Origin: Mycoplasmatota bacterium
Lineage (GTDB): Bacteria > Bacillota_I > Bacilli_A > MAG-NZ
Assembly: GCA_018394315.1 (NCBI GenBank)
Contig: CP074575.1
Location: 1,706,615 to 1,770,614, forward strand
Direction: 5' to 3'
Length of the DNA stretch: 64,000 bases
Shown: one piece after another, positions 26,881-61,478 of the stretch
How positions within the stretch are numbered: position 1 is the first letter of the stretch
How the letters are laid out: the number at the start of each line of letters is the position of its first letter
Notes under the pieces: model-generated
Told to the model about the DNA's origin: nothing
Databases searched by the model: none
What the model saw: only the letters and a program-made list of their open reading frames with translations
Made by a program: the position numbers and the translations under genes

Positions 26881-28287
26881 TTATATGATTCTAAATCCAC
26901 CGGATAAAGTACATCTTCTAATTCTAGTAAAACTTCGTGCAGAAGTTAAACCTTCTCCTGTTGGTGTTGCGATTGTTAGGGTTGTAAATCCTTCCCCTTC
27001 TATTCCAAGTCCTGCGTAAGAAGGTGCGTTCTTAACAAAAATTGATGTATCTAAAGCACGTGCTGCTAATGTTAAATTAGTTACACTTTCTGAATGCATT
27101 ATCGCTGTATGATGACATCCATTTTCAGCAGATACTGCTTTATTAATCGCTTCCTCTATTGAATAAACACGAACTAAACCAAGAACTGGCATTAACATCT
27201 CAATTTTAACAAATGGATGTTCATCTGAAACTTCGGCAATTATAAGTTTAATATCCTCATTAACGTAAATATTGCATGCTTTCAGTACTTCTGAAGCACC
27301 TTTTCCCACATATTTTCGGTTAACAACAGTCTCACCTTTATTATTGGTAGTAAATACTTCTCTTGTTACAGTATCTATTTCGTGGCGTTTAAGTTCATAT
27401 GCTCCGTTTTTAATCATCTCTGTTATAAGTTCATTGAATACGCTATTGATTATAAATGCTTCTTTTTCTGCAATACATAAAACATTGTTATCAAAACTTG
27501 CTCCTCTAACAATATCATTAGCAGCTTTTTTGATATCTGCTGTTTCATCAACAATGACTGGTGGATTTCCTGGTCCTGCAGCAATTACTTTTTTACCGCT
27601 TTTCATGGCTACTTCTACTACTGCTTCTCCGCCTGTAACAGACAACATTCTAATGTCTTTATGTGACATTATCACTTTACTTGTGTCCATCGATGGTTCA
27701 ATTGGTGAAGTAAGCAAATCTTTTGGACCACCAACACTATATATAGCTTTATTCAATATATTAATAGTTTCTAAACAGACTTTCTTTGCTCCTGGATGAG
27801 GGTTATAAACGACTCCATTTCCTGCAGCTACCATGCTTATACTGTTATTGATAATTGTAGAACTAGGATTAGTCGAGGGAGTAATTGATCCAATTACACC
27901 AAAAGGAGCAAGTTCAACTAAAGTCATTCCGTCATCTCCAGTATAAGTGTACGACTCTAAATCCTCAGTCCCGGGTGTTTTCTCAGCTGCTAAAATATTT
28001 TTCGCAATTTTGTCTTGAATTCTTCCAAATCCTGTTTCTTCATGAGCCATAACTGCTAACTTTTCTGCATTTTCAAGACTGGCTTTACGCATAGCAGCGA
28101 TTATTTCACTTCGTGTTTTCATACTGAGATCCATTAATTGTTTTTGTGATGCCCTCGCTGCTGAAATTGCTTCTTCAACATTCTCAAAACAACCAAAAGA
28201 TTCATACGCTTCAGAACTTGGTCGATTCTGACCGTACTTTTGCTCCATTTCAACTATGAGTTTTTCGATTAAGCTATCTGTACTCAT
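26881..28287 (-). CDS. CoA-acylating aldehyde dehydrogenase (EutE/PduP family)
   Basis: PSTNP, AGPGNPP, FDNNVLCIAEK, TIATPTGEG. Confidence 0.92.
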   Translation of the reverse strand: MSTDSLIEKLIVEMEQKYGQNRPSSEAYESFGCFENVEEAISAARASQKQLMDLSMKTRSEIIAAMRKASLENAEKLAVMAHEETGFGRIQDKIAKNILAAEKTPGTEDLESYTYTGDDGMTLVELAPFGVIGSITPSTNPSSTIINNSISMVAAGNGVVYNPHPGAKKVCLETINILNKAIYSVGGPKDLLTSPIEPSMDTSKVIMSHKDIRMLSVTGGEAVVEVAMKSGKKVIAAGPGNPPVIVDETADIKKAANDIVRGASFDNNVLCIAEKEAFIINSVFNELITEMIKNGAYELKRHEIDTVTREVFTTNNKGETVVNRKYVGKGASEVLKACNIYVNEDIKLIIAEVSDEHPFVKIEMLMPVLGLVRVYSIEEAINKAVSAENGCHHTAIMHSESVTNLTLAARALDTSIFVKNAPSYAGLGIEGEGFTTLTIATPTGEGLTSARSFTRIRRCTLSGGFRII

Positions 28288-28973
28288 CTTATCTCCTCCT
28301 CATTGTATTTTATCTCGATTTTAAATTCACGTAGTTTATCCTTTGCTAGTGGTGTAATTAATTGTTTCTTACCGAGAACTATCTCCTTTAAGCCACTTTC
28401 TTTTAAATTTATGACGTAACTTTCAGTAATTAAATTTACTTTATTAAGTTGAGAATTTGTTTTCTGAATATTTATCACATTGATTCCCATTTTTTGGATG
28501 GCATTAACTTGATTTGATATTTTGTTGAACATTAAATCATTCGAGTTTATCATGATATAAAGAGGTTTATTCACCATTAGACTGCTAAGAATAATATGAT
28601 TAATATCATCTGAGTCATCAGTTTCTATTATTGCTTTCATTTGATTGATTCTCAAGCCAAGAACAATGATAACTTCAACTGAATTAAGCAAGTTAAGAAA
28701 ATCACTATTTGCTAGATTAAATTCTATAAGCTGTAAACTATTATTATCAATATAATTTATTTTAGATAGTTCTTGAGCTGTTCCTAGATAGAATTCATAA
28801 CCAGAATAATTTTCCTTAATATACTCTAAATAATCTTTAATTCCAAAGACCATATTTTGTAGTAAAATTAAACAAGATTTATCAATTGATTTGGAATCAT
28901 TGTTACAATTTATCTTATTTAGAACATTTTGAGTAACTGTATTCACTAATTTATCAATATTATTGATTTCCAT
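28284..28973 (-). CDS. BMC-associated hypothetical protein (flavoprotein-like) with encapsulation-peptide-like N-terminus
   Basis: IDKLVNTVTQNVLNKI helix, C-terminal LITPLAKD motif typical of BMC accessory proteins. Confidence 0.65.
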   Translation of the reverse strand: MEINNIDKLVNTVTQNVLNKINCNNDSKSIDKSCLILLQNMVFGIKDYLEYIKENYSGYEFYLGTAQELSKINYIDNNSLQLIEFNLANSDFLNLLNSVEVIIVLGLRINQMKAIIETDDSDDINHIILSSLMVNKPLYIMINSNDLMFNKISNQVNAIQKMGINVINIQKTNSQLNKVNLITESYVINLKESGLKEIVLGKKQLITPLAKDKLREFKIEIKYNEEEIR

Positions 28974-45099: not shown

Positions 45100-45897
45100 T
45101 TATTCATCTCTTTTATCCTCTTTTTTTGGGCGATACTTTTTGATTAATTCTGACCACCATTTACCAATTTCAGATAATCTACTTTTACTAAATACAATTA
45201 TTCTGTTTTTATCACTTTGAAACTCCTTTACAAGTTTTAATTCCTTGTTCTCTAATGAAACACTAGATATAATCATTACCTTATTTTCAGTGGTACTTTC
45301 AATATAATACTGACTATCTGACAATTTAGATTTAATAAAATATAATGAGCCTTGATGCTCAAATGTCAATCTCGTTATAATTGAACTAAATGATTCTTTA
45401 GTAAATGTAAGAAAAATTATCATACCACTTGTTATAGAACTTGAAATTACATAATTAATTCTTTCAGAATCATCTAAAATTTTAAGAAATTGAGGATAAA
45501 ACAAACCTAATAATAAAGAGCATGAAATTATCTTCAGTAATATATTAAGGCTCAAATTCCTAGTAAGGTAAACCTTACGTTTCACTGTCATTTTCAATAC
45601 CCAGAAAGAAATAAAGGAAATACCAAAACCAAACATAATTAAATTACTTATATCTTTTGCTTCAACTTTTCTTGAATGGAGTATTAAAATCATAAAACAG
45701 AAAACTAGACTATAAATTATTATCTTTGATAATGTATTCAATAACCTTGTTATTATTTTCTCGTGTGAAGTAAGTAGATTGGCTTCAATATGATCGTAGG
45801 CAAAGTATTTGAAAATGAATCCTACCAGTATAGCTCCAAAGATTAAAAGTCTGTTGTTCTCTAAATTTAACAACTCAATTAATTGCGAAATCTCCAT
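45100..45897 (-). CDS. Hypothetical multi-pass membrane protein
   Basis: About 5 TM helices, then a soluble basic C-terminus. Confidence 0.65.
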   Translation of the reverse strand: MEISQLIELLNLENNRLLIFGAILVGFIFKYFAYDHIEANLLTSHEKIITRLLNTLSKIIIYSLVFCFMILILHSRKVEAKDISNLIMFGFGISFISFWVLKMTVKRKVYLTRNLSLNILLKIISCSLLLGLFYPQFLKILDDSERINYVISSSITSGMIIFLTFTKESFSSIITRLTFEHQGSLYFIKSKLSDSQYYIESTTENKVMIISSVSLENKELKLVKEFQSDKNRIIVFSKSRLSEIGKWWSELIKKYRPKKEDKRDE

Positions 45898-46049
45898 AAA
45901 TCCCCCTTTTTCTTAAATTATAACACAGGAGTCTTTTAAATTCCTTTTCATGAAGAACGTTGATATAACTTTTTCGAACCATTATGAAAAAGGGTCCGTA
46001 TCTCTTATTACTATGTTCACACTATTTTGTTATACAATTCATGCAAATC

Positions 46050-46088
46050 AAAAACCTCCCAATAATAAATAATTATTTGGAGGTTTTG
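46050..46088 (-). terminator. Terminator-like hairpin after the radical SAM gene
   Basis: AAAACCTCC...GGAGGTTTT. Confidence 0.55.
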
Positions 46089-46196
46089 TGCCTAATCAGT
46101 CATTTTTTCCTACAATCGTTTTAATTACACGTTGTAGTTGTATTTTTGCTTATCAGTTATAATGTAAACTTACTGGTACATTTATGAACCACTAAC

Positions 46197-47411
46197 TCAT
46201 TCCTCATACTCCATCATTTGCAAGTAATCTGTTAGTGTATAACTATAGCTACTATTAACATAAGTGATTCCGTTTTGATCAAATGTTCCTAATGTTAATG
46301 TATTACTATTAACATCCATTTTAGTGTTCTTTAATAGTGATAATGGATACACTACGTGCCTCTTGCAATTATTCCTTTTCATCCATTCGAAGATAGCTTC
46401 ATAGGACTCACACGTTTCACCAGGTAAACCTCTAATGATTGATAATTCATAATCAATGTCAAATTCATTGAGGTTTCTAATAACGTACTCAATTGAAGTG
46501 AAATCATTAACTCTTTCTACGTTGTCTAAAACTTGTCTAGAAATACTTTGAAGTCCAAATTCCAAGGTACAGTTAATTTCGGCGAGTTTCTCAAGAAGTC
46601 CTTCGCTCTTTTTAATCAAGTTATAGAATATTTCAAACTTCATCTGAAAACTTATGATAGGTTTAAAATTAATAGATAATAAGTACTCTAATATCTCTAA
46701 ATAATTTTTAATACTGAAAATCGGATCAATAATATTTACCTTTTGGACATTTATTTCATTCAAGTATCTAAGTTCTAACTTTACTTTCTCTATGTCATGG
46801 CAAGTAATTTTACTATGATCATTGCTTTTATAGGAGCAAAACGAACAGTTTGCAGGGCATCCTCTTTTTGTTTCAATTCTAACTACTGAATTATCATTTA
46901 TATCAATGATTCCATTGCTGTAAATACATGGAATCATTTTATTATCCACTTCTTTAGAATAAACTTTATCATCACTTTTACTAGTTAGTATTTCTAGCAA
47001 TGATTCCTCCGCAAATCCTATAATAAACTTATCTACTTTTGAATATTGATTAATCAGAGAATCTACTGTTCTACTTCCTACTTCGTAGCCCCCCGCTATA
47101 ATCTGAGTAAGTGGATTGTTACTCTTAACCAAATCAATTATATTGTCAATGAATCTCATAGACCAGGAGTAAAAGGAAATGCACACAAAATCATAGTTAC
47201 TTACTAGCATTTTATTCAATGCAGCTAATTGATCGAATATAATTGTGTATTCACTATTCATATTAAAAGAAAAGGCATCTATATTAATAGGCTTTATATT
47301 TTCTTTCAAATACGATTCGAGTGTAGCAACTGCTACACTCTTTATCGGTTTATTTATTTCGTGGAAATCAAATGTTACAAAAAGTACATTTTTGATATCG
47401 TTGTTAATCAT
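46197..47411 (-). CDS. B12-binding-domain radical SAM protein
   Basis: N-terminal ISFYSW...IIAGGYEV cobalamin-binding-like fold, IETKRGCPANCSFC (CxxxCxxC), EFGLQS, IRGLPGET. Confidence 0.85.
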   Translation of the reverse strand: MINNDIKNVLFVTFDFHEINKPIKSVAVATLESYLKENIKPINIDAFSFNMNSEYTIIFDQLAALNKMLVSNYDFVCISFYSWSMRFIDNIIDLVKSNNPLTQIIAGGYEVGSRTVDSLINQYSKVDKFIIGFAEESLLEILTSKSDDKVYSKEVDNKMIPCIYSNGIIDINDNSVVRIETKRGCPANCSFCSYKSNDHSKITCHDIEKVKLELRYLNEINVQKVNIIDPIFSIKNYLEILEYLLSINFKPIISFQMKFEIFYNLIKKSEGLLEKLAEINCTLEFGLQSISRQVLDNVERVNDFTSIEYVIRNLNEFDIDYELSIIRGLPGETCESYEAIFEWMKRNNCKRHVVYPLSLLKNTKMDVNSNTLTLGTFDQNGITYVNSSYSYTLTDYLQMMEYEE

Positions 47412-47715
47412 TGCTCACTATCTTATAACAGTTCTTTGATATTCTACGTGCCTTAAACCTCTTGCCATTAGCTTTCCAATGCGGGAAATCATCACCCTTC
47501 TCATCATTAGTTAATACATGATTAGCAATCTTATTACACATTTTATCTGTTCCACCATCAGATATTGGTCTTATATGATCAATATTCCAAGAATACTTAC
47601 TGCTTCTATTATTATAAGCAGACTTCTTCATCAATCTTCCACTGTAGTCACGACACTCATTTCTATTTCCACAAGTATTGTTCCAAACTTCTTCTTTATT
47701 GTTGTTTTTAGCCAT
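47404..47715 (-). CDS. HNH endonuclease
   Basis: WNIDHIRPISDGGTD...N...H..TNDEKGD. Confidence 0.85.
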   Translation of the reverse strand: MAKNNNKEEVWNNTCGNRNECRDYSGRLMKKSAYNNRSSKYSWNIDHIRPISDGGTDKMCNKIANHVLTNDEKGDDFPHWKANGKRFKARRISKNCYKIVSND

Positions 47716-47768
47716 TATAATTCTCCTCTATATTAGTGTGACGAAGTCACTCATATAAAGAATCAAGA

Positions 47769-47791
47769 AAAACCCAAGAAACTTGGGTTTT
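47769..47791 (-). terminator. Intrinsic terminator in the leader upstream of the HNH gene
   Basis: AAAACCCAAG-AAA-CTTGGGTTTT. Confidence 0.65.
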
Positions 47792-47912
47792 GCTATTCAA
47801 CCATGCATATAGATATTGCTATCATACTATCAACTCCTACAAATCTTTAGTTAATGAGGACTCCGTCCGTATAACATTTATTTATAGAAGTTATGTTTAA
47901 TTATACCATATT

Positions 47913-49739
47913 TTAGTAAATCTGTAAATCTTGGAATGCGTTATCTATTGCAGAGCGTAGTTTTTTAGATAATTTTATAGGTTTTTCATTATTGAAGAAT
48001 GAATCTATCTTCTTACATTTAATTTTCGGTTCTTTTTTATCACCACTTCTTTTACAAAGAAACCTGATATCAGTGTTTGACATAACGTCTTCAATCTCAT
48101 CCACATCACCTATAAAATAGATATTATGTTCATATTCTTTTAATAATGTCTTTCCTAACTCGAATTTAGCCAACTCATATTTGTCTTTATCAAGGATAGC
48201 ACTAAATGAGAGATTATTCTTTATGCAAAAGTCAATTATGCTGATTGCTCCATTACCGGAACCATCAACGAAATTAAATCTATCCACGTCGACATTATGA
48301 ACATGTTTCATAAACGAGCGATATAAACATAAATCATTACAACTTTCCGCAACAAAGATACGTTTGTTACTGAATAGTAGCAACTCACCAGCAGTGATTT
48401 TATCTAGAAAATAAGTATCATCAGTTTCTAATTTCTTAACATCAATGCTCATACCATCAGTGACCAAATAGTTATTAATGTCTCTTCCAAAATTAATCAT
48501 GAAATTTGAGTGTGTCGTATATACAACTTTTACCTCTCTTTCATTTAAATACCTAAATACTTTGAATAAGTTGTTCTGCATAATGGGATTTAAATACATT
48601 CCGGGTTCATCTATTAATATAGTATTTTTATTAAGATCTTTAACACATTCTGCAAATCGGATAACCCACTTCTCTCCATCACTATACTTCTCAAATGGTT
48701 TTGCTTCAGAAATCTTGATTCCAATTAAACTCGAAATTTCCTTAATAGATTCATAGTCAACTTCCTCTTTACGAGGGTATCTATCCCATGGTACTACTGG
48801 GAGATATTTAATTTTGTCATCATAATCTGAAATGATATCTATTAATACTTTCTTGAAACTCTTTACATCATTTTCAATTTCATAGAAATTATCGTCAAAC
48901 CTCATAACTTCTTCTTGAGTCTCACGATAAGAATTATTGGCTTTGTCTAATAACTTTACAAGATCATTAAATTTCATATTTAATGTCTTAACATAGTCAC
49001 GAATTCCTTCAACATCAATCTCTATTCCATCTATATCGATAGTACAATCCTTGTAGTTTCTAATGAATTGCTCAATGTTTCTAGTATCTACAAACTCCTT
49101 GTTACCATGATAGTAGATTGTTTCTAAATTATTCATTAAGTCAGGGTCAAACAAATCAAATGTTTCTTTATTAAATTTAATCAGTAAATCACTAATGCGG
49201 TCATTCTCAAAAAAATTTAGTAGTGGACTTAAATCTTGTTTTGTGAAGGTGAAGTTATTAAACAAAGGACTGTGTTGGAACTCGTTTCTCCCAAAGTCAA
49301 TATTAATTTTATCCTGATACTTTTTAATACTACTTACCGCACTTTTAATGTTTAAACTAATCTCTGTAATATCCTTATTACATTCACTCAATTTTTCTTC
49401 TATTCTACTAGAAAATTTTTCTGCTCCTTTAATACTGAAAATCTCTTGACGTCTCCAACTATAATTTGTTTTTATTTTTACTATAACCTTATCCTTAAGT
49501 TTATATTTAGATAATTCCGGATACTTTTGAGTATCGAGTTCATATTCTTTGATAACATCACCCTTAGGAAAATCATATAAATTACTACCGCTAAGGAATA
49601 GAGCTTCCAAAATACTTGTTTTACCTACTCCATTCTCTCCGACGATACAGATATTATTTGCACCAAGATCCAACGATATATTTTCAAGTTTCTTATATTT
49701 TTCTATAAATGCGCTCTTCAACTTTACTGGATTACTCAT
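47913..49739 (-). CDS. OLD-family-like ABC ATPase with C-terminal TOPRIM-like nuclease domain
   Basis: GENGVGKT, YSDGEKW signature, ILIDEP, YTTHS. TOPRIM-like FVAESCND...ILDKD...EIEDV. ATG overlaps the upstream stop. Confidence 0.78.
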   Translation of the reverse strand: MSNPVKLKSAFIEKYKKLENISLDLGANNICIVGENGVGKTSILEALFLSGSNLYDFPKGDVIKEYELDTQKYPELSKYKLKDKVIVKIKTNYSWRRQEIFSIKGAEKFSSRIEEKLSECNKDITEISLNIKSAVSSIKKYQDKINIDFGRNEFQHSPLFNNFTFTKQDLSPLLNFFENDRISDLLIKFNKETFDLFDPDLMNNLETIYYHGNKEFVDTRNIEQFIRNYKDCTIDIDGIEIDVEGIRDYVKTLNMKFNDLVKLLDKANNSYRETQEEVMRFDDNFYEIENDVKSFKKVLIDIISDYDDKIKYLPVVPWDRYPRKEEVDYESIKEISSLIGIKISEAKPFEKYSDGEKWVIRFAECVKDLNKNTILIDEPGMYLNPIMQNNLFKVFRYLNEREVKVVYTTHSNFMINFGRDINNYLVTDGMSIDVKKLETDDTYFLDKITAGELLLFSNKRIFVAESCNDLCLYRSFMKHVHNVDVDRFNFVDGSGNGAISIIDFCIKNNLSFSAILDKDKYELAKFELGKTLLKEYEHNIYFIGDVDEIEDVMSNTDIRFLCKRSGDKKEPKIKCKKIDSFFNNEKPIKLSKKLRSAIDNAFQDLQIY

Positions 49740-51753
49740 TGTTTTCCTCCTTTTCAAAGAATACTGATAACTTCTTTAAACTCGGATTTGCGAGAAAATA
49801 CTTACTAATCTTATCAAAGTTAATAAATTTGTCTTTAGGAAAAGCAACTTCAAACTTCTCTAATCTCTTAGAATCCACTATGGTACTATATTTTACCGAG
49901 TAGTCATCAATCACTAGTGTTACTTTCTGGTACTTTCCTATATCCTGAAATATTGTTGCAAATTCAATATCTATTTCTAATCCTAATTCTAATATCTTTT
50001 TTCTAATCTGTGCTGGAATAAATACTATTGAGGTAGTACCCTTAATAATTATATTTCTTAACTGATTCAATCCAAAGTTCTCTGATACTAGAGAACTGTT
50101 AATTGCATCAAAACTCTTTATTTTAGTCTCTCCATCATCTGTAGTGAGACTAATAATGCTTGCACCGTCATCTTCTTCTGGTAATAGTAATGGGGAATGT
50201 GTTGTATAAATCACCTTTTGATCTAAATTCATTAACTCATACATAATCTCCTTCTGAGCTTTCAAATGCAAAAAACTCGCCGGTTCATCAATAAAGAGTA
50301 AATTGTCCCCTTCAAGTTGATTTGCTAATATCTTGTAAGAGATATACCATTGTCTTCCAGATGATGTTTCGCTTAAAAGCGTATTACTTTCTCTACCTTT
50401 TTCTAAGAATGAAATTTCCACTTTATCATCTTCGTTGGAAATATTAAATTCCTTAATATTTCCCCTATCAAAATCCGGAACATCCTCATTAAGAATTTCC
50501 AATACCTTCTCAAGCATTATTTCTCTCTTATATTGATATAGTAAACCACTAAACCCTGATTCAAAATCACTGACTATATGTCTGTTGTAAATTACATCCT
50601 TTATTTTTTGAAGATATATTTCTTGATTGTCTTGCAAGAGTTTATATTCTTTCATCTCAGAGATTGGAATTCCATTGTCTTTATACTCTTCTATTGTATT
50701 CTCATTAGAATCCTCAAATATGTGTAACTCTATTAAATTAAAAATATATTTATCATCTAATTTGTTCTCGATTATATCATCTTGATATCTACTATATAAT
50801 ACTCTATAAATTTCATCACTAATAAATAGTAACGTAGAATCTAACAATTGCTTACTTAATCTTTGTTGATGGTTTTGACTGGTAGATAAAAACAGAACTT
50901 TCTTTTGCAAGTTCTTATCTATATAGGATCTAAGTCCTTCGTGATTTGTGAATAAAGCATGGAATTTAGTGTGTAGTTGATTTATTTGACTGAATACCTC
51001 ATAGATATCTTCATCAAACTTCTTATTATCGCTTATAAACTTATCTGCCAAAATCTGGAATCTCGATTCTCCTAGTGTAATAAAATCACCCAGAAAGGAT
51101 TTTATGTCCGAGTATTCATTTCCGGAGTTTTTGTAATCATAAAAAAGACTTCCTGAATAAGAGACATCAAATCTAGGACTATAGCCTGATCTATCACTCC
51201 TGCATAAACTTTGATCATTCACATATTCTTCTCTCTTATCAAATATACTTTCTACACATCTTCTGTAAAGGTAATCCTCACTATACCTTGTAGGAACCGT
51301 ATGATCAAAATATTCATTTTCCTCCAAGTATTTAGTAAACATTTTCAAGTAATCATATCTTAAATCAATGAATCGTGAATTGAGTTCATTAATTCTCATG
51401 CCAACTAAGTCAAACTCTTTAGGAATAGAATTAGAAGATATATTGTGTTTATAATCTTGAATAGAGTTATCTACATAAAACGTAGCATTTTCCTCAGAAT
51501 AAACTAGCTGTGAAAAAAACATATCAAATTCCTCTTTATTTAGCTTAACCTTAATAAGATACTGTATAGGTTCCAACTTAAATTCTCTAGAGTCGTAACT
51601 TCTCCCTGTAAGTATTCGCTCAAGTATTCTTAATAATGTTGTCTTACCAACACCATTTTTACCTATAACGCATAATTTACTCTTATCAAAAACGATTTTT
51701 TGATTCACAATATTCAATTTCTCGTATGTTAGGTCAATTTCTAATATATTCAT
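49732..51753 (-). CDS. ABC/AAA ATPase (OLD/AbiEii-like) with degenerate C-terminal domain
   Basis: GKNGVGKTT, SSGRQW, LFIDEPASFLH, YTTHSP, long helical insert. Confidence 0.78.
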   Translation of the reverse strand: MNILEIDLTYEKLNIVNQKIVFDKSKLCVIGKNGVGKTTLLRILERILTGRSYDSREFKLEPIQYLIKVKLNKEEFDMFFSQLVYSEENATFYVDNSIQDYKHNISSNSIPKEFDLVGMRINELNSRFIDLRYDYLKMFTKYLEENEYFDHTVPTRYSEDYLYRRCVESIFDKREEYVNDQSLCRSDRSGYSPRFDVSYSGSLFYDYKNSGNEYSDIKSFLGDFITLGESRFQILADKFISDNKKFDEDIYEVFSQINQLHTKFHALFTNHEGLRSYIDKNLQKKVLFLSTSQNHQQRLSKQLLDSTLLFISDEIYRVLYSRYQDDIIENKLDDKYIFNLIELHIFEDSNENTIEEYKDNGIPISEMKEYKLLQDNQEIYLQKIKDVIYNRHIVSDFESGFSGLLYQYKREIMLEKVLEILNEDVPDFDRGNIKEFNISNEDDKVEISFLEKGRESNTLLSETSSGRQWYISYKILANQLEGDNLLFIDEPASFLHLKAQKEIMYELMNLDQKVIYTTHSPLLLPEEDDGASIISLTTDDGETKIKSFDAINSSLVSENFGLNQLRNIIIKGTTSIVFIPAQIRKKILELGLEIDIEFATIFQDIGKYQKVTLVIDDYSVKYSTIVDSKRLEKFEVAFPKDKFINFDKISKYFLANPSLKKLSVFFEKEENNE

Positions 51754-51811
51754 TATTTACCCCTCATAAAAATTCATTTAGCATTGTAAGTACATGTCAT
51801 ATGAATTTCTG

Positions 51812-52555
51812 TTAGTATAATCGCCATTTTTCCTCATTTGGATAATATACTTCACCATACTTGGCTTGTCCTTTTCTCATTTGAATATACCCCATAACCG
51901 GCTTATTGTGTGAAACATAATATACAGAAATATATCTTAGATCCGGGCTAAGAGGATCATCATTTGTAATCTTTATTCTTTTATTTTGTTCTGGTTTTTC
52001 TCTCCATAATTCATAAACAGTTTTATATCTCTTCTTCTTATTACTCATAACATTATTGTTCATAGAGACTTCTTTATTTTGAATATTTTCATTTGCTACA
52101 GTATTTGTGTTGTGAAGAGATGGAATAGTCGATGAATGGTTAACTGATAATCGCTCATAACGTTCTTTCTTCACTCGATGTGAATTTGAAGAACTAAATA
52201 TCTCAGATACTATGGAAATAATCAATAGAATTCCAATACCACTCCCGATATATTTTGTCGCAGGTAACGAAATAATATAATCTATAAATTCGACAATTTT
52301 TACTGTTAACCATATTAAAAAAGACGTAATTATCACATATAAATACAACCTACTTCTCCCACCCTCTGAAACTGTATTAATTAGTTTTATAGAGTATAAC
52401 CATCCGACAACCGCAAATGCTGCTCTCGCTGCCACTGTTGAGATGACAAATAATAAAATTTTATCAAAAAAAACTACCCCACTAATAACTACTAGTCCAA
52501 AAACATGTCCCAAGAGGAATTTTTTTATACTGAATTGATTCATAAAATACCTCAC
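51812..52555 (-). CDS. Hypothetical protein with 4 TM helices and a basic soluble C-terminus
   Basis: Hydrophobic N-terminal half. No family recognised. Confidence 0.6.
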   Translation of the reverse strand: MRYFMNQFSIKKFLLGHVFGLVVISGVVFFDKILLFVISTVAARAAFAVVGWLYSIKLINTVSEGGRSRLYLYVIITSFLIWLTVKIVEFIDYIISLPATKYIGSGIGILLIISIVSEIFSSSNSHRVKKERYERLSVNHSSTIPSLHNTNTVANENIQNKEVSMNNNVMSNKKKRYKTVYELWREKPEQNKRIKITNDDPLSPDLRYISVYYVSHNKPVMGYIQMRKGQAKYGEVYYPNEEKWRLY

Positions 52556-52588
52556 TTTTGTTAATCATCCTACCCTTGCTAGAGAAAT

Positions 52589-53341
52589 CTAATACCCAAT
52601 TATCTCTTTTGAAACTTTTTCAATAATATCTGTCGATATTTGATTTATGTTTAATGTGTAAACTATATTAAGTCTTGGGTTAAAAATACCGATATTTCTC
52701 ACTAAGTCAAAATCAGAATGTATAGATTTTTTCCCCATTAAGTAATACATCAGAAGTTGTAAGGTATGTTTATTTGTTGGTTTGTTTTTTGATACTTTCA
52801 TATCCCACAATGTATCACGCGTTACAAAATCTCCATCTCCAGTTGAAACAATATCAGTATATCCACCTTCAAATGTAGGAGAATCTAAAATTACCGGTCC
52901 ATATTTTTCAAAGAAAGCTATACTTCTATTAACCATAATTCTAACATTTTCAATTGTTAATTCATCAGGATTAATTATATCTACACCTCTAAAAAAGGTT
53001 TTACCTGCCCTAAATACAACATCATAACCTACTAACTTGCAAGCACTTCTAATTGATTCGTTGTCCAGGCCCTTAATACTCAATAGCAAATATTTTGCGT
53101 TTTCCATTTCATCTGCTGAATGTGCTCCCATTATAGAGATTCTAAAAGCATCAGTTAATTCACTACCTAATAACGCTCGAGTCAAATAATCTACAGCAAG
53201 GCCAATTAATGACGCATGAATATTTTCACTTTCATTAAGCAATTTTCCGTCATTAATACGATCAACACCAAAGATTTTTGGATTAATATAACCTCCTCTT
53301 GGTTGCTTTATTGTCTTTATTCTTTGTGTCACTGAATACAT
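52589..53341 (-). CDS. PD-(D/E)XK (RecB-like) nuclease
   Basis: GDGDF...LWDMKVS...LQLLMYY: D...DxK plus QxxxY. Confidence 0.7.
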   Translation of the reverse strand: MYSVTQRIKTIKQPRGGYINPKIFGVDRINDGKLLNESENIHASLIGLAVDYLTRALLGSELTDAFRISIMGAHSADEMENAKYLLLSIKGLDNESIRSACKLVGYDVVFRAGKTFFRGVDIINPDELTIENVRIMVNRSIAFFEKYGPVILDSPTFEGGYTDIVSTGDGDFVTRDTLWDMKVSKNKPTNKHTLQLLMYYLMGKKSIHSDFDLVRNIGIFNPRLNIVYTLNINQISTDIIEKVSKEIIGY

Positions 53342-53509
53342 GATTATCCCTCCATTACTATATATAAATTACACTGTAATTCATCAGTACAATGCATTAG
53401 AAACACTCAATTTAGTGGCAAATAATTGTTCTTTGAATGGTATTATATGATAATTCTAACTCTTTAGGAATTAATAGTTGTTTATCGTAAGAACTTTGTA
53501 CGATATTAA

Positions 53510-55573
53510 TCACTCAGATAATTGCTTATACAAAGTCATAAAATCGTTACTTGAAGTGAAATTGTAACTTGAAAGTAATTTTGATTTTATGATTCTTTCA
53601 ATTTGCTTACTTTTAGTGGGATCTTGGTATATAATGTACTTTAATTTTCCAATAACCTTTTTTACTCGCTGGTTTATATCTTTGTTAAGGACTATGTCAC
53701 AAAATTCTATGGTTGCTTCACTCACATATGATTTTCCAACCGAAATGGTATTCCCCAATTCCTTCTTAACAATGTTTAACCCAAGGAATTTCACATTATC
53801 TCCAATAGATAACAATTTTTTATTCTCTAGTTTCTTACTATTTATTGTTAATTTGACCTTAGATAAAGAGTCAATAACGGATTTTTTAATACTTTCAATA
53901 TCAATTTCATTTTCAGACGAAATCATAATATCATCAGCATATCTTGAGTAAATGCGATTTCTATTCTTACAATACTCCCCAATTTCCTTATCAAACTCAA
54001 AAAGGTAAATATCAGATAATTTTGGTGAGGATACAAAACCAATAGGTAACTTATTCAAGTAATAACAATTGTTCACCATATTTTCGATTTGAGTATGTAG
54101 AATATCTCTAATCGTACTCTGTTGAACATTAAAATCTTCTATGTGATTTACTATTTTAGACACAAGGATATCAGAATTTATTGAGTTAAAAAAACTAGAT
54201 ATATCAGCCTTAAAAAAATACTGACTATTTAAATGAGGCAAAACACAATCATATGTTGACCTACCAGTCTTGTATGCATATGAATTTGAGTCACTCAAAA
54301 CATGATTGTTAAGAAACGCAACAATGTTTTTATGTAGTACTCTTGCATTTTGACCATATTCAGTCTTTGAATAAGTTACTATCCTTCTCTTCTTCTTAGG
54401 AGAAGATACTATGAAACTGCTATATGCTAGTTTATTATACTCATAACTAGGCTTTTGAAGCGCAATCTTTGTGAAATTAATTAACTGTTTATCATTTGTA
54501 ATCATGTTAGTAAATGAACTGTCATTTTTACTTATTTTACTCTTAAATCTAGTAAATATCTCATTGGGATTACTTATTAAACTCCTTCTTTTAGAATATT
54601 TGTTCCCCCCATTTCTGAATAGGATAAGGAACTCTATCATGTGTTTAACTACGTCAAAAATGGACTCACTTAAGTCTACGTCAATATCAAACTTTGAGTT
54701 AACAGCTTCTAATGGAGTTATGGTATTATGAGTAACCAAAGAATTAATGACTAAGGAGTTAACATTCCCAATTACAGATGAAACATAATCATCCAGATTA
54801 TACTTAAACTGATTAATCAATATTTCTGACTTGTTTCCATACTCATCCTTGAGAAATCCTTCGATGATATAAAATAATAATTTTGTTGAACATAAAATAT
54901 TATATCTCTGTGGTTCTAAAACATCACTTGTAAGTTTTATAAAAAAGTCACTAGAGCTCTCATTGGTTATTGAAAAGTCAATCTCGTATTTTTCTTTGTT
55001 TCTTAGTAATGATTTTTTAACTGATTCTTCGATGCTAATGGGTAGCTCGTCCTTAATAAATCCAAAAAACTCGTCAACCACATCGGAAGACTTTGCATAT
55101 CTGTTTACTTTTGGATGGTATCGGACTAAATCCACAATTTCTCTAATATCACGATTTTCTCTTATTGATTTTTTAACATAATACCCTACAGCATCATTAA
55201 TAATGTCCTCCTCGTAAGGTAGAAGTGTGTATGTAAAATTATTTGCCTGAGCATTGGTAAACATCCCATACTCCGCTGCAGTAGATAAGGTATCGAGAAA
55301 AACAAAAGTAGATGCAGACACCTTGGCTAATATTTCCTCCATTAGTTGGATTCTTATATTTTGACTAATAAAAGATTCCTCGGCTAAGAAAAAATCAATA
55401 ATCAAGGGGAAAGGATGGATTCCGTTTACATCACTATGTTCCTCAATATACTTTTTTAAAATTCCTCTCCTGTCTGTTTTATCTCTCCCATCAAAAAAAG
55501 GACCACATAGGAAATACAATGGTCTTGATATTATAATTGATTTATTTAAAGTCCGTTGATTGTTTAGTTTCAT
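53510..55573 (-). CDS. Retron reverse transcriptase with fused N-terminal St85/Ec86-effector-like (NDT-like) domain
   Basis: RT motifs SYAYKTGRS, KADISSFFNSI, LPIGFVSSPKLSD, YSRYADD (53930-53941), KFLGL. N-terminal YFLCG...RR...EEILA...FVFLDTLSTAAEYGMF. Confidence 0.85.
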   Translation of the reverse strand: MKLNNQRTLNKSIIISRPLYFLCGPFFDGRDKTDRRGILKKYIEEHSDVNGIHPFPLIIDFFLAEESFISQNIRIQLMEEILAKVSASTFVFLDTLSTAAEYGMFTNAQANNFTYTLLPYEEDIINDAVGYYVKKSIRENRDIREIVDLVRYHPKVNRYAKSSDVVDEFFGFIKDELPISIEESVKKSLLRNKEKYEIDFSITNESSSDFFIKLTSDVLEPQRYNILCSTKLLFYIIEGFLKDEYGNKSEILINQFKYNLDDYVSSVIGNVNSLVINSLVTHNTITPLEAVNSKFDIDVDLSESIFDVVKHMIEFLILFRNGGNKYSKRRSLISNPNEIFTRFKSKISKNDSSFTNMITNDKQLINFTKIALQKPSYEYNKLAYSSFIVSSPKKKRRIVTYSKTEYGQNARVLHKNIVAFLNNHVLSDSNSYAYKTGRSTYDCVLPHLNSQYFFKADISSFFNSINSDILVSKIVNHIEDFNVQQSTIRDILHTQIENMVNNCYYLNKLPIGFVSSPKLSDIYLFEFDKEIGEYCKNRNRIYSRYADDIMISSENEIDIESIKKSVIDSLSKVKLTINSKKLENKKLLSIGDNVKFLGLNIVKKELGNTISVGKSYVSEATIEFCDIVLNKDINQRVKKVIGKLKYIIYQDPTKSKQIERIIKSKLLSSYNFTSSNDFMTLYKQLSE

Positions 55574-55577
55574 AAAA

Positions 55578-55789
55578 AAATAAAATAGTCTTACTTTACG
55601 AATTGGGAAAGGTAGTTTGATTTCAAACTGTTTCCTGAGCTATGCAGCGAGGGGACGAGTTTGAAATTAAAGTAGCTTTTATAATTCGAAAACTAAATCA
55701 GTATATTATCTCTTGTATCCACAAGAGAAGTGCATCAAATCGAAGTCTCCTTCAATTAACAAACATTTGCTAAGACTATTTTATTTGTC
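55578..55789 (-). ncRNA. Retron msr-msd non-coding RNA
   Basis: Perfect 16-bp inverted repeat 55578-55593 / 55771-55786. G at 55770 directly after the 5' arm, two short msr hairpins, long msd hairpin 55599-55688. Confidence 0.88.
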
Positions 55790-56845
55790 ACCCCCATTAT
55801 ATAGTTTAAAATCACTTTCTGTCAAATAATATTTCTTATCGTTATAATATTTAAAGGGTATAACAATATATGTTTCACCCTTCACATTGTATGTGTGTTT
55901 ATCTAATTCGCTCACCATCTCTAATTCTGTTAACCTCGAACTTAGTAGTCCTACATTCACAGTATTTAGAATTCCATTCAATTCATCCGATACTTCTGGA
56001 GAAATCAAATAACTAAGTCTAACTTCCATATCAAGAAAGTCATCATTGTTTTCGCTAATAGATTGTAGAATAATATTTACAGTTTTTTTTTCGTTTTCTT
56101 GGTCAAAATTTTCTCTAATTAATCCTGTTAGATGATCGATACTCTCGAATTTCTTGCAAAATCCATAGTACTTTGGAATATGGTTAAAACTAAATCTACT
56201 AATAGCATTATCCCAAATCCAACCCTTTTCATTCAAGGATTTTAAAAGTTCATCAGCTAAAGGTTTCTCGTTGTGTTGAAGAAGACTAACTAACAATCGC
56301 AAAACACCTTCATAGTGCCTATCATTAATTCCAATGTCTGAATCCTTTTTTTCTTTTTCAAACAAAACGTTGCTTTTCTCCTGAATTAAGGCTAAAAGGA
56401 TAAGTAATTGTCTCAGTTCTATATTAAACCCGTGAAAATCTACCCTCTGAGACACAAAATCAGTATTGATTAGGTTAAAGTGTTTCAAAAAATAAGGGAT
56501 TCCTTTATAGGTGAATACACCAATTTCTTTCCTTGGTTCTCTTAGAATGTTCATCATCTCCACACGGTTAATATTGGTGAAAATCAATAGAACTTCATAT
56601 ATCATTGGGATTGTCATATAGACACTACTCTTGTTATCTATAAGGTAAAATCTTGGTTCATTTCCATTCACACGAATTTGAAAGTTATAAGAAATTTCAC
56701 CATCTATTCTATAAATTTTGGGAACACTGACTGTAATGTTATCAATGAATCGAAAATAAGGAGCTATTCCATACTTCTTATTTTCTCTGAAATCTATCAC
56801 GGTTCGATTAAAATCAGTCCTAGTAGCATAAAAAAATTCTTTCAC
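55781..56845 (-). CDS. Hypothetical protein, 354 aa, directly upstream of the retron RNA
   Basis: GAGG RBS, GTG start, long ORF, no family recognised. Confidence 0.7.
   Translation of the reverse strand: MKEFFYATRTDFNRTVIDFRENKKYGIAPYFRFIDNITVSVPKIYRIDGEISYNFQIRVNGNEPRFYLIDNKSSVYMTIPMIYEVLLIFTNINRVEMMNILREPRKEIGVFTYKGIPYFLKHFNLINTDFVSQRVDFHGFNIELRQLLILLALIQEKSNVLFEKEKKDSDIGINDRHYEGVLRLLVSLLQHNEKPLADELLKSLNEKGWIWDNAISRFSFNHIPKYYGFCKKFESIDHLTGLIRENFDQENEKKTVNIILQSISENNDDFLDMEVRLSYLISPEVSDELNGILNTVNVGLLSSRLTELEMVSELDKHTYNVKGETYIVIPFKYYNDKKYYLTESDFKLYNGGDK
55796..55825 (-). promoter_or_regulatory. Sigma70/SigA promoter of the retron
   Basis: TTGACA(55825-55820)-N18-TATAAT(55801-55796). Predicted +1 near 55789, just before the 5' arm. 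Confidence 0.8.
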
Positions 56846-56926
56846 TATTACAATCCTCGTTTCATTTAAACTATAAATTGAAATACACTTTGGTTTGAGT
56901 ATTCTTATGTTTTAACTCGTTCTATT

Positions 56927-58081
56927 TTAGTATCTTAAAAAGATTTCTATATTGATGAACTTATCAAAAAATTTCGCTCTTCTTTGTGCTATTTTTGCAT
57001 CGCCTTTTGACTTAAATCTTGTTCCTTCTTTTGCAAAACTAATATCATGAATATAGTAATCATTTGAAACAACTTCTAAATCACCATCACATACAACAAC
57101 CCAGTATCTCTTCTTAGGTCTATTGTGTTGATATGAGAAATATGGATCTAAGTATCTGTAACCCCACATAACTCTCTTATTTACTTTAGCATCGTCAAAA
57201 GCTTTGTACATCTCGTCAAGATATAGCCTATCTCCATCTATATGATCAACAGTTGCGAATCCTGATTTCACCATAATGTAGTTAAGTAATTGATACTCTC
57301 CGTCAATCTTTAACCATACCCAACAAAGCCCTCGACCATATCCATCTCTCATCCTACTTTCTACATCCTGCTGAATGACTACTTCTTCAGTTTTACTTAT
57401 TAAATGCATCATATAGTCTCTAGCTAAAATACCCCACTTACCTATACTCTTTATGGTCTCTGGTGTGTCTATTGCTAGTAATCTTAATCTTGAATTCTCC
57501 TTTAAGTCAACTCTTAAGGTATCACCATCAATAACCAAATATACTTTGGCTACTCTAGCTGCACATTTACCTGTATTTTTAAAATCACTAAATTCATACT
57601 CCAAATACTTTTCATCAAAGATTGGACCATCATATTCAACTTCATATGAAGTAACATCAAAGATGTACGTATCTAGTTCACTAAAGGCATAGATATCATA
57701 TACACTAACACCTAATCCTTTTGCTATATCAACTAAGGTATCGATACTGATATTACCTGTCATACTTTCATATTCAGATATTGTTGAATGAGAACAATCA
57801 GTTAAGATTCCTAGTTGAGTCATTGTTAAGTTTTTTTCTAATCTAAATTCAACTAATCTATCAGCTACTTCTTTTTTTATAGTTTCATAATCAATCTCAA
57901 TGTCCAGTCCATTAATCATCTTACATAGGTTTTTAACAGTAGTATTTCCAGTAGATTTTTCAAACTTGGATATTGTTCTGTTGTTAAGTCCAGTAATCTC
58001 ACATAGTCTTTTTACAGAGACATCCTTGTTTAATCGTATTTTTCTAAAATTGCTAGCAATATCATTTTGAAGTTCATTTAA
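56927..58081 (-). CDS. Tandem XRE-HTH domains fused to a thermonuclease (SNase) domain; start codon non-canonical or mutated
   Basis: SNase motifs VIDGDTL, RLLAIDTPE, RDGYGRGL, LNYIMVKSGFA. The frame stays open upstream of 57919 through a second HTH (FRKIRLNKDVSVKRLCEITGLNNRTISKFE) to TTA at 58081 after GGAGG. Confidence 0.75.
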   Translation of the reverse strand, partial: LNELQNDIASNFRKIRLNKDVSVKRLCEITGLNNRTISKFEKSTGNTTVKNLCKMINGLDIEIDYETIKKEVADRLVEFRLEKNLTMTQLGILTDCSHSTISEYESMTGNISIDTLVDIAKGLGVSVYDIYAFSELDTYIFDVTSYEVEYDGPIFDEKYLEYEFSDFKNTGKCAARVAKVYLVIDGDTLRVDLKENSRLRLLAIDTPETIKSIGKWGILARDYMMHLISKTEEVVIQQDVESRMRDGYGRGLCWVWLKIDGEYQLLNYIMVKSGFATVDHIDGDRLYLDEMYKAFDDAKVNKRVMWGYRYLDPYFSYQHNRPKKRYWVVVCDGDLEVVSNDYYIHDISFAKEGTRFKSKGDAKIAQRRAKFFDKFINIEIFLRY

Positions 58082-58237
58082 GACCCCTCCAACGTATGTT
58101 TTAGTATGAATTTAATAGAATTTTCTTAAAGATATTATACCATAAAAATACAATATTCGCTATTGATAGTCATTCGACAAGGTTCGACAATTTGGTATCT
58201 ATAGTATCTATTTCTATAGATGTTTTAGAGGAGTTAT

Positions 58238-58740
58238 ATGCTTGAAGATAAAGTGAACAATCGATACATGAATGATGAAGTATTTACATTGGTTGAGAAT
58301 TATTTAAAATAACTGGTGATTTATTAAATCTTCAAAGTATTGAATATGAACTAATTTCAGCTGACCTCTTCAATGAAAAAGATATCACAGCTATTTTCAA
58401 TCCCAAGGATAAAATAATATTAATCAACAAGGATTGGTTGATTCATTCCTCAGCGTTGCATGTTTCGGAAGTCATTTTACATGAGTCTAGACATCTATAT
58501 CAGTATGAATGTGTTTATAGCAACATCAGTCACTGTCATTCAGAAAACACTATTACTAAATGGAATTTTGAGTTCGAAAATTATGTTCTTTATTCACTAG
58601 AGTCTTTACCTAGACATCTCATTCAAGCAATTGAGAAAGATGCTTATAAGTTCGCAGCAACCACATTGAGTAGATTTACATTTACTGGTAAACAGAAAAA
58701 GAAAAATAAGCCAGAGGCTTATTCATCTAATAGTTTTTGA
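58238..58740 (+). pseudogene. Frameshifted HExxH zinc-metallopeptidase-like gene
   Basis: GAGGAG-ATG at 58238, stop near 58310. Continues in the -1 frame to ILINKDW...VILHESRHLYQY...IEKDAYKFA. Confidence 0.65.
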
Positions 58741-59213
58741 ATTTTGGAATGTTCTTCTTCCATATTTTCTTTTGCTCATTCTTATCTAGTTGTTTAATTG
58801 ATTCCTTCAGTTCAACTAAGAATGATTTTAGATTACTTATTGATGATTTCATTTTACATCCACCTTTCTTTTTGTATAACCTAAAAAGAATATATGGATA
58901 TAATTAGTTCAAGGACGCGTAGCGCTTGTACATCCTTGAAGTAAGTATGACATATGTTAGGTTACACCAGCAAAAAGACGGTGAAATGAGATTAGAGTAA
59001 TATTATCAGTTAAATATAAGTTAGAAATTAGAACATTTCATCTAGTTCATCGAAACTGGTAATTCTGGAGTCAAAGTCCGTTCACGATATTATGGAAACA
59101 TTACACAATTAAGTTTTCTAAAAGCAATCACATTTCTACTTGCAAAGAGTAGAGTTTATTAATTAATTTATACCCATTGTATCAGATGACTATGAACTAC
59201 AAGTTCGCACTAT

Positions 59214-59240
59214 GAAAAAAAGCGAAATACTCGCTTTTTC
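59214..59240. terminator. Bidirectional terminator-like hairpin
   Basis: AAAAAGCGA-AATAC-TCGCTTTTT. Confidence 0.55.
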
Positions 59241-59349
59241 TATTTTCTCATATATAGTTATCCAGCTCTCAATCTAGAACAGGAAATTACACCTAGAACC
59301 TAAAAAGGTTTGGTGAATTTTCATCTATAAACACATATATTATAGAAAC

Positions 59350-60522
59350 TTAAAGTTTTTTAGTTACAACTTTCATGATGTGTTCATATGCATTCATCGA
59401 CTCAATTGTCTGCTTATGCCCATAATAATCTGTAATATTTCTTTCGACAGCATACTGGTACTTCACATTATATATTTCCGGATCCTTCTTTAGTGACTTC
59501 ATGACTGTTCTATAGTGGTATCTACAGCAATTCCCAAAAAATTTACCACTCCCACACAAGCACTCATCCCTAAACTGGAGTTTTGAAAAATCATGATGAA
59601 TTTTGAATTGTAAAAAATCATGTTTGCTTTTATCTCTTTCATAGAAAAAAACCTCCTTTTTTAATGCAGTCATGCTATGATTACCAGAATCAAACTTTGC
59701 AAAAGTCATTGATGGTCTCGTGTGAGTAAAATTCTTCAAGGATTTTACCAAATTGATTTCTTTTAGGCAAACCGCCTTTACATATGAGTTATTAATAATT
59801 ACATTATTTACTTGAGATATTTCATCCTCTAATAGGTTGCAAATCTTACCAGATTGAATATATTTAGGTGGTTTACCATTAAGGAAAACTAAATAGTAAG
59901 TAGAACTTAATGGAATTAAAACAATAACATCTCTAAACCCAATCATTCTGTTGGTACCATTTATGAATCTAGATTTAAAATTCAAGGATGCTGTTGACAA
60001 AAATTGATCACTTATAATAAATCCTTGATTACTAGACTTAATAATTGATACTTCATAGTTATATTGAATCGTCTTAGATAGATTATTTATATAATTTGAA
60101 TCAAAGATATTTGCCATTACTTTATCTATTTTATCATCTTCATTGATATTCCCACCATGATTTCCAATTTCATATAAGACAGCACCACTTCTGTAATAGT
60201 AAATCAAGAATGAAGGCAATAATCTATATATTTGAGTTAGTACACTAGCAAGTATATTCTGGTCTTTTTCAAGTGTTTCAATAGATCTAAGTAACTCCAA
60301 AAGTTTTTTTGTGTACTCACTTTCCATTTTACCAAATTGTTTTTCAAGAAAATTAGTCTCGCTCCTAGACGACTCATAAGTATACTTACTAGACATAGAA
60401 TTGCTTATGTTTGTCTTATATATTTTGTTCTCTGGCAAAAACACCTCATAAGTTTGATTGTTATCTGCAAATTCACGTAAAACTTTCTCTTGAATATAAT
60501 GTTGATTCTTTACTGTTCCCAA
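59350..60522 (-). CDS. DUF4238-like protein with SEC-C zinc motif
   Basis: NQHYIQEKVLREF, FIISDQ, IPLSS, CLCGSGKFFGNCC. TTG start after GGAGG. Confidence 0.7.
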   Translation of the reverse strand: MGTVKNQHYIQEKVLREFADNNQTYEVFLPENKIYKTNISNSMSSKYTYESSRSETNFLEKQFGKMESEYTKKLLELLRSIETLEKDQNILASVLTQIYRLLPSFLIYYYRSGAVLYEIGNHGGNINEDDKIDKVMANIFDSNYINNLSKTIQYNYEVSIIKSSNQGFIISDQFLSTASLNFKSRFINGTNRMIGFRDVIVLIPLSSTYYLVFLNGKPPKYIQSGKICNLLEDEISQVNNVIINNSYVKAVCLKEINLVKSLKNFTHTRPSMTFAKFDSGNHSMTALKKEVFFYERDKSKHDFLQFKIHHDFSKLQFRDECLCGSGKFFGNCCRYHYRTVMKSLKKDPEIYNVKYQYAVERNITDYYGHKQTIESMNAYEHIMKVVTKKL

Positions 60523-60786
60523 TTTTACACCTCCAAATTCATCCTTTTCCAGGTTACAATTGCTATTTTTGGCCCATAGCCCGATAAACAATTGATATGC
60601 ACGATGTCGATTCTTATGATAGTGAGACTAAGATAATCGACTCATCAACCCTTATCGATGTGTTTATCATGCTGCATAGAGCACTATCCTTATTCTATCA
60701 CTATCATATATTGAAACTACTACAAATGAAAGAAAAGGACTCAATGTCCCTTTGGCTAGTTCAAACAAGTTTATTAGTATGATACA

Positions 60787-61386
60787 TTAACCTTGAACGA
60801 AAATGCGTTTTACTCTTATCTTAAGACTTTTAAACATTCGCCTTCTTTTATTTTTCCTATTTATTTTCAGATGATCAATATCCTTGTATATCTTAATACC
60901 GTTAATTTGACCAATGATATTTCTTCTGTATTTATACTTCGTAGAATGATGAAACAGCTTGGATTCATGATATTTATTCTCAAACCCATAAATTCCATTT
61001 TTCTTCAAGAATTTAGCATATTGATAGTAATGGACAATTAGATTTTTCCTAAAATTATCATAATCTACTTCATAACTTAATGCATAAACTAAACTTTTTC
61101 TCACATTACCTCTGATGACTTTTATTAGATTGAATATCATAAATGATTTTCCATTTTTTATGTTTCTAATTTTGAAGTCTTTATCGTATTTATCTCTTAA
61201 TTCTTCTTCAGAAAGATTTGCATAGTGGTACTTGTTATAGAACGCATTATACCATGCTTTAATCTCATCGACTTTTATTTCGTTTATCGTCTGTAAATGA
61301 CTTAAAAATAAACAGTGATTATTTATAAGAAAAAAAAGATTAGTATGAATCTCATCATATTTATTCTTTCTTTCAATATTAATTAT
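60787..61386 (-). pseudogene. 5'-truncated ORF abutting the tRNA 3' end
   Basis: The frame of ORF 60787-61140 stays open to 61386 with no ATG/GTG/TTG in the extension. Confidence 0.6.
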
Positions 61387-61391
61387 TTAAA

Positions 61392-61478
61392 TGGTACCGG
61401 TGGCCGGACTCGAACCGGCACGGGTTTGACCCCATTGGATTTTGAATCCAACGTGTCTACCAATTCCACCACACCGGC
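61392..61478 (-). tRNA. tRNA-Leu(CAA)
   Basis: GCCGGTG acceptor stem, TTGGA-TTCAAAA-TCCAA anticodon arm, long variable arm, GGTTCGAGTCC, encoded 3' CCA. Confidence 0.96.

Follow-up and report, generated by a model that had tools for sequence, protein, structure and literature searches.

A window of 64,000 nucleotides from a Mycoplasmatota bacterium (assembly GCA_018394315.1, contig CP074575.1), by which we mean the whole stretch of DNA that was analysed, contains a reverse transcriptase (RT) gene on the minus strand. An initial annotation, made from the sequence alone, proposed that this gene is preceded by a complete msr/msd RNA with G55770 as its branch point. Does the locus indeed encode a retron RNA, and if so, to which kind of retron does it belong?

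Architecture of the ncRNA

The feature in question, terminal arms that enclose short msr hairpins and one long msd hairpin next to an RT, is present in the window. Its elements are as follows.

55771..55786, minus strand: 5' arm of the ncRNA (repeat search, arm alignments)
55578..55593, minus strand: 3' arm of the ncRNA (repeat search, arm alignments)
55770, minus strand: predicted branching G providing the 2'-OH primer, invariant in a 22-sequence alignment
55594, minus strand: G opposite the branching G, putative first template base (facing-G comparison across loci)
55742..55753, minus strand: msr hairpin 1 (folding; in the window and L002 only)
55709..55728, minus strand: msr hairpin 2, the one conserved among homologues (93.9% of cells are paired in an alignment of 19 sequences)
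55599..55688, minus strand: msd template hairpin (RNA and DNA folding, alignments)
55637..55651, plus strand: msDNA tip with the conserved motif GA-GC..GC-GA (20 of 23 loci); no other part of the msd is as well conserved (alignments)

Here and below, counts out of 23 refer to loci hand-picked as distinct and complete, including the window; near-duplicates and mis-anchored loci were left out.

The proposed pairing of the arms proved to be perfect, with 16 of 16 positions complementary and a spacer of 177 nt. In the whole genome of 2,165,257 bp, this is the only perfect inverted repeat of at least 16 bp with a spacer of 100–260 nt. G55770 adjoins the end of the 5' arm, opposite G55594, and by analogy with known retrons it would act as the priming nucleotide. 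It had been described as unpaired. This holds for the centroid structure but not for the minimum-energy fold, where it takes part in a weak local hairpin. L002, the closest homologue, forms no such hairpin. Both short hairpins of the initial annotation were found again (55742–55753 and 55709–55728), as was the long imperfect hairpin at 55599–55688.

Folding, the check that had been recommended, gave −56.7 kcal/mol for the minus-strand RNA at 55570–55800 (z −4.12), and none of 200 shuffled sequences folded as well. Folded as DNA, the plus strand at 55595–55700 reached a z-score of −6.69, again with 0 of 200 shuffles as good. The predicted msDNA corresponds to the plus strand and would extend from about 55594 to about 55690–55700. 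Its tip is better conserved in the alignments than the surrounding stem, which suggests that the tip may be recognised by a protein. This tip could plausibly form a tandem G-A mismatch.

Conservation and covariation across homologous loci

Homologous loci were obtained from a metagenome scan in which the best 80 of 379 relatives yielded 52 loci, a sample biased to close relatives. The N-terminal protein motif was present in 47 of these, and together with the window they provided 35 distinct upstream regions. Facing Gs closed a stem of eight or more Watson-Crick pairs in 33 of the 35 distinct regions, compared to 0.3 in shuffles. The two regions that lack such a stem are those of L013, where the contig ends, and L019, which has a different upstream sequence. 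Among 14 distinct G-anchored arm pairs, positions 1–7 were paired in all 14, with two to three pair types at positions 2–7.

In a 19-sequence alignment that includes the window, the arms and the msr hairpin were paired in 97.5% of the cells, with 19 two-sided changes. None of 500 shuffles equalled this pairing and slid controls reached only 42–55%, although the kinship of the sequences inflates such counts. Compensatory changes were found at 22 of 38 consensus pairs among 16 members, window excluded. The initial annotation had staked its reading on conservation or covariation of arms and hairpin upstream of homologous RTs. There, the arms, the facing Gs, an msr hairpin and a long msd hairpin recur with compensatory changes, which supports the reading of the RNA as msr/msd and of G55770 as its branch point.

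The covariance model that had been called for was less successful than these comparisons. Built from the 16 other members, it contains compensatory pairs, but it missed the window RNA at E ≤ 1. Scores of L002, L041 and L050 ranged from E 0.13 to 0.64, with L002 at E 0.25. The window RNA is ~45 nt longer than those of other members, has an extra hairpin and is divergent in sequence. Because the model missed it, the window RNA is tied to the family by its architecture and short motifs rather than by a model match. Rfam gave no match at the RNA, either in the window or in 18 loci. Sequencing runs were also checked and none was listed as containing the RNA, which carries no information on its expression.

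Could the fold be a chance product of A+T-rich intergenic DNA, or an ordinary terminator? The genome has only 31% G+C, and the failure of the covariance model to find the window RNA would fit such an origin. Yet, the 16-bp repeat is unique, the z-scores are strongly negative, and the RNA covaries in comparison with L002 and others. The uniqueness of the repeat and the 33 of 35 G/G-closed stems effectively refute a chance fold, which we regard as extremely improbable.

Several related loci deviate from the common pattern. In L019 (1–500), the fusion gene described below is intact, while the upstream RNA and the end of the upstream gene are swapped for unrelated sequence, by rearrangement or misassembly. 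L014 (832–1971) encodes a related RT of 337 aa without the effector half, with a promoter upstream and a very short RNA (~110 nt) of the same design, including G-closed arms, a U-run and a Shine-Dalgarno sequence; it is possibly an effector-less mini-retron. The short related RTs of L055, L056 and L057 (249–258 aa) come from a single family within the host's class, where they occur in three of four genomes. On the same strand, the RTs of L055 and L056 are followed by a membrane-protein-like gene, and the RNA model found no match near the RTs of these three loci.

An N-terminal fusion of effector and RT

The initial annotation overlooked three components of the locus: the fusion of an effector to the RT, the gene upstream of the RNA (here called U) and the U-run behind the 3' arm. 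The open reading frame at 53510–55573 encodes a single protein of 687 aa, in which the effector is N-terminal to the RT.

54539..55573, minus strand: effector half (~aa 1–345), NDT/RcaT-like, with putative catalytic E101 (profile matches)
53510..54538, minus strand: retron-type RT half (~aa 346–687), with YADD at aa 545–548 (RVT_1, E 9e-24)

The N-terminal half matched the PADLOC model NDT_II-A weakly, with E 3.7e-6. Its match to NF038232 (E 3.1e-6) is weak and below the cut-off, with 27 bits against a cut-off of 100. A profile of the N-terminal half matched 13 stand-alone St85-like proteins (348–371 aa) at 99.7% over 272 columns. The homology to stand-alone effectors extends to ~aa 288, and whole-protein fold searches were filled by RT matches. 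In an alignment with the Ec86 effector (E 0.1), the counterpart of E101 is E106, which has been called catalytic (10.1101/2023.08.16.553469). E101, R35, R36, D94, G103 and F105 are invariant in all 81 sequences compared. Judged from these comparisons, the protein carries a predicted NDT-like effector domain with a catalytic Glu, which stays below the curated cut-offs and is backed via the stand-alone intermediates.

The best PDB matches of the RT half are retron RTs, both by sequence and by fold, and its fold aligns with that of Eco7 with Z 26.0 and an rmsd of 3.0 Å over 292 residues. The match to the St85 RT model (134.8 bits) is under the cut-off of 235. The catalytic RT motif is present in all 81 sequences, as YADD in 77 and YSDD in 4. 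NAxxH is the name of a retron motif, and where the Ec78 RT has NAxxH our RT has CxxxH. The VTG signature of RT motif 7 is absent; all 81 sequences have (Y/F)(L/I/V)G instead, which aligns to the TG of the Ec78 and Ec83 RTs. VTG is said to be found in 'most' retrons, and hence it is typical rather than strict (PMC8632793).

The fusion family comprises 111 proteins, mostly of 640–700 aa, with named members in Lachnospiraceae bacterium KM106-2, Fusibacter bizertensis, Butyrivibrio sp. M55 and Mobilitalea sp. The N-terminal half alone recovered 113 further representatives, 74 of which have YxDD. The database gene call of the window protein (P0001, 610 aa) starts 77 residues late and thereby loses the first NDT motif, so that the system is easily overlooked.

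The fusion is interrupted at some loci. In L010 and L011 (2959–4958), the reading frame changes where effector and RT meet, which divides the fusion into parts of 334 and 326 aa. The junction is identical in the two records, and this is possibly a natural return to two genes. In L037, L039, L042 and L043 the fusion is broken at other places. L031 (139–2922) has a related RT as the C-terminus of a 927-aa open reading frame, with a P-loop-like motif seen by eye in its N-terminal part, which suggests another N-terminal fusion among these RTs.

Promoter, candidate terminator and translation start

Two further elements flank the RNA.

55796..55825, minus strand: sigma-70/sigma-A promoter TTGACA-18-TATAAT in the 3' end of U (12 of 12 positions match)
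55574..55580, minus strand: seven consecutive U that close the 3' arm and may act as a terminator tract

The promoter is one of 28 perfect sites of this kind genome-wide, and its position places the predicted transcription start near 55789. A similar promoter was found at the corresponding place in 19 of the 23 loci; 20 of the 23 have six or more T in a row behind the 3' arm. The U-run behind the 3' arm suggests termination. In an intrinsic terminator, a duplex is directly followed by a U-run; the arm duplex with its immediate U-run would have this geometry. A scan for local-hairpin terminators detected none at the locus.

As had been noted, the 3' arm stops 4 nt short of the RT ATG at 55573, and no Shine-Dalgarno-like word precedes this ATG. 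The absence is somewhat unusual against the norm of the host, where such a word was found at 604 of 862 long open reading frames in a crude count. The earlier suggestion that RNA folding may limit translation where such a word is missing is unproven and not general: in 14 of 23 loci a Shine-Dalgarno sequence lies downstream of the arm, ahead of the start. The same 14 loci led us to reject the absence as a conserved regulatory feature.

Alternatively, the RNA might serve as a cofactor or regulator of a retron-like kind that forms no canonical 2'-5' branched msDNA before infection; it could, for example, gate the fusion's expression or be the template of another cDNA. The missing VTG, the CxxxH in place of the NAxxH of the Ec78 RT, and an arm that ends 4 nt from an ATG without Shine-Dalgarno sequence would fit this explanation. 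There is also a precedent in type VI retrons, which reportedly act via translational control. Conversely, the facing Gs and the long msd hairpin are canonical and conserved, the Shine-Dalgarno sequence lies outside the arm in most homologues, and YADD or YSDD occurs in 81 of 81 sequences. We therefore consider this explanation unlikely, and favour an RT that makes canonical msDNA.

The upstream gene U

The gene directly upstream of the ncRNA has the following position.

55781..56845, minus strand: orphan gene U of 354 aa, with a Shine-Dalgarno-like word before its GTG start

Homologues of U are mostly 228–256 aa long. The promoter of the ncRNA is part of the last codons of U, which also reach into the 5' arm, and in several loci the stop codon of U ends on the branching G. 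From the 47 loci, two with too little flank were set aside, and in 41 of the remaining 45 the RNA is immediately preceded by a U homologue, many of the 41 being near-duplicates. In the hand-picked set, U is adjacent in 19 of 23 loci. The testable loci without U are L019, L032, L041 and L050. In L032 (211–1797), a CBASS-type cyclase gene (PADLOC E 1.5e-62) takes the usual place of U.

In 18 loci, the pairwise identities of U follow those of the fusion, with a Spearman coefficient of 0.74 that none of 2000 permutations reached. The trees of U and the fusion also agree in their strongly supported groups, although block inheritance alone would give agreement as well. The only U match in viral contigs is on the same contig as the only full fusion match. 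The complete three-part cassette occurs on this type of replicon in L059/L060, a viral contig of 50.7 kb rated 100% complete, and hence phages can carry the cassette. A plasmid search with U found nothing.

Searches with the U sequence against Pfam, PADLOC, NCBIfam, PHROG and PDB gave no family match. The predicted model of U is confident over approximately residues 1–220. Foldseek against PDB and viral libraries, VIA-align (best Z 4.5) and two Atlas look-ups did not identify U either, but an absence of matches does not make its fold new. The idea that U is a detached piece of the effector was rejected by comparison.

The retron may alternatively consist of two parts, the RNA and the NDT-RT, with U merely linked as a neighbour that supplies the promoter or as a separate defence gene in the cassette. 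In favour of this explanation, the −35 box is formed by YYLT codons that are invariant in U. Moreover, the divergent fusions L032, L050 and L041 have an intact RNA without U, and profile searches gave 49 U clusters against 111 fusion clusters. Several observations point the other way. The whole frame of U is kept open at 25–40% identity, and invariant residues lie far from the promoter (R9, F66, Y83, Q155–S158, G180, R183, G208–W209). Furthermore, U was not seen apart from the retron, with one copy in the genome and 1 of 1 viral matches, and 14 of the 49 U clusters match a fusion cluster in the exact size of their longest contig, as seen by eye. Hence, mere linkage is rather doubtful, though it deserves serious weight, and we prefer to see U as part of the system.

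Genomic context

The retron lies in a run of minus-strand genes at 45100–61478 that resembles a defence island and extends from near a tRNA gene (61395–61478). The run contains matches to PDC-S61 (52589–53341; PADLOC E 1.5e-114) and to the radical SAM model PDC-M51A (46197–47411; PADLOC E 1.5e-71). Its other members are a SEC-C-motif protein (a weak match), an HTH-nuclease, two ATPases and an HNH protein. The neighbourhood of the retron thus looks like a defence island. Elsewhere in the window (26881–28973, minus strand), an aldehyde-dehydrogenase-like gene and its neighbour resemble, by eye, part of a microcompartment operon.

Of 400 scored genomes from the host's phylum, only that of the window itself yielded the effector half, which would fit mobile defence cargo. 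A plasmid search with the effector half found nothing. A single-protein scan of genome contigs was discarded, as its sole match covered 38 residues and was spurious.

Comparison with known retrons

Mestre et al. (2020) distinguish 13 retron types and describe RT-effector fusions as C-terminal (PMC7736814). The fusion types named in a further source are I-C, VII-A1, XI and XII (PMC12916289).

Type II-A1 (Sen2/St85, Eco3/Ec73; PMC7736814) shares the NDT-like effector family (NF038232, PADLOC NDT_II-A) with our locus. In both, the effector precedes the RT and the msr/msd architecture is canonical, and the best NCBIfam RT model here is the St85 RT. In II-A1, however, the effector is described as a separate gene, whereas here it is part of one fused open reading frame. 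Also, both halves of our protein are under the family cut-offs, and the locus has an extra conserved upstream gene. Type II-A2 is described as having part of the effector, a DNA-binding domain, on the N-terminus of the RT, with the NDT domain split off by a frameshift (PMC7736814). In our protein the NDT domain is in frame. Identity with II-A2 was considered and found unsupported, as the 477-position PADLOC model RT_II-A, which we take to be the II-A2 model, matched the RT part only (positions 233–451).

Compared to Eco1/Ec86 (II-A3; PDB 7V9X, 8QBK), the catalytic Glu and its motif can be aligned (E106 with E101), and the RT folds superimpose with Z 24.3 and an rmsd of 3.8 Å over 300 residues. 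Yet, Eco1 has a separate effector downstream of the RT, and its RT is not the closest by sequence. The closest solved RTs, by sequence and fold, are those of the type I-A retrons Ec78/Eco7 and Ec83 (RT clade 1), whose effectors are in contrast a separate ATPase and HNH nuclease.

The fused types I-C (Eco2/Ec67), VII-A1, XI and XII likewise combine RT and effector in one protein, but according to Table 1 of Mestre et al. (PMC7736814) these have C-terminal TOPRIM, DUF3800, protease and TIR domains, whereas ours is N-terminal and NDT-like. Such C-terminal domains are absent here; the RT reaches the C-terminus, and the models of those fused types match the RT part only. Conversely, the NDT domain as a separate open reading frame, a feature of type II, is replaced by the single 687-aa frame, fused family-wide.

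An NDT-RT fusion was not found in the accessible portions of PMC13712802, PMC12548924, PMC8934634, PMC13069673, 10.1101/2020.06.21.156273, 10.1101/2020.06.22.160168 and 10.64898/2026.10.13.758329. No description of the architecture was found in the literature covered, which was mostly the main text of freely available papers, so that its absence from print is unproven; family members may be listed in the supplementary RT table of PMC7736814. We conclude that this is a real retron RNA of ordinary outline, in what is apparently an undescribed variant of type II. It would work like a type II retron, yet it falls outside II-A1, A2 and A3 as defined.

Proposed mechanism

Quite probably, the locus is an anti-phage retron related to type II, composed of U, a promoter inside U, the msr/msd RNA and an N-terminal NDT-like effector-RT fusion, which would operate by a mechanism of six steps. 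The RNA architecture, the fusion, its catalytic residues and the linkage to U come from sequence comparison; for priming, msDNA, termination, caging, the trigger and the role of U, our proposal follows known type II retrons.

The internal promoter would produce the ncRNA from ~55789. The arms would then pair, and the RT would prime on the 2'-OH of G55770 and copy the msd hairpin into a branched msDNA of ~100 nt. The arm duplex and the U-run may stop most transcripts ahead of the open reading frame, in which case the RNA would be in excess over the toxic fusion; we put this forward tentatively, at slightly less than even confidence. RT-bound msDNA would keep the fused N-glycosidase domain inactive. 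During infection, a phage protein would bind, modify or cut the msDNA, most likely at the conserved tip, and thereby free the effector. Depletion of nucleotides or NAD by the freed effector would result in abortive infection. There is a reasonable, though modest, case for U as an accessory subunit, which most plausibly restrains the effector or aids sensing.

A bolder proposal is possible, if somewhat doubtful: a new, four-part retron type, in which the N-terminal N-glycosidase-RT needs the dedicated partner U. The promoter in the last codons of U and an arm duplex that serves as both priming scaffold and terminator would set the stoichiometry, and the tandem-GA tip would be the phage sensor.

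Implications

NDT/RcaT has been called the most prevalent retron effector (10.64898/2026.10.13.758329). The literature covered describes it as a protein of its own, kept caged in assemblies of RT and msDNA. What appears to be undescribed is a toxic enzyme fused to the front of the RT, with U nearly always just upstream. The natural N-terminal fusion fixes the ratio of effector to RT at 1:1, which makes models of caging and oligomerisation directly testable. The family also supplies a conserved candidate partner protein, U, with no recognised fold. Finally, it adds retrons whose hosts are low-GC Gram-positives, and these may be suited to genome editing in such organisms.
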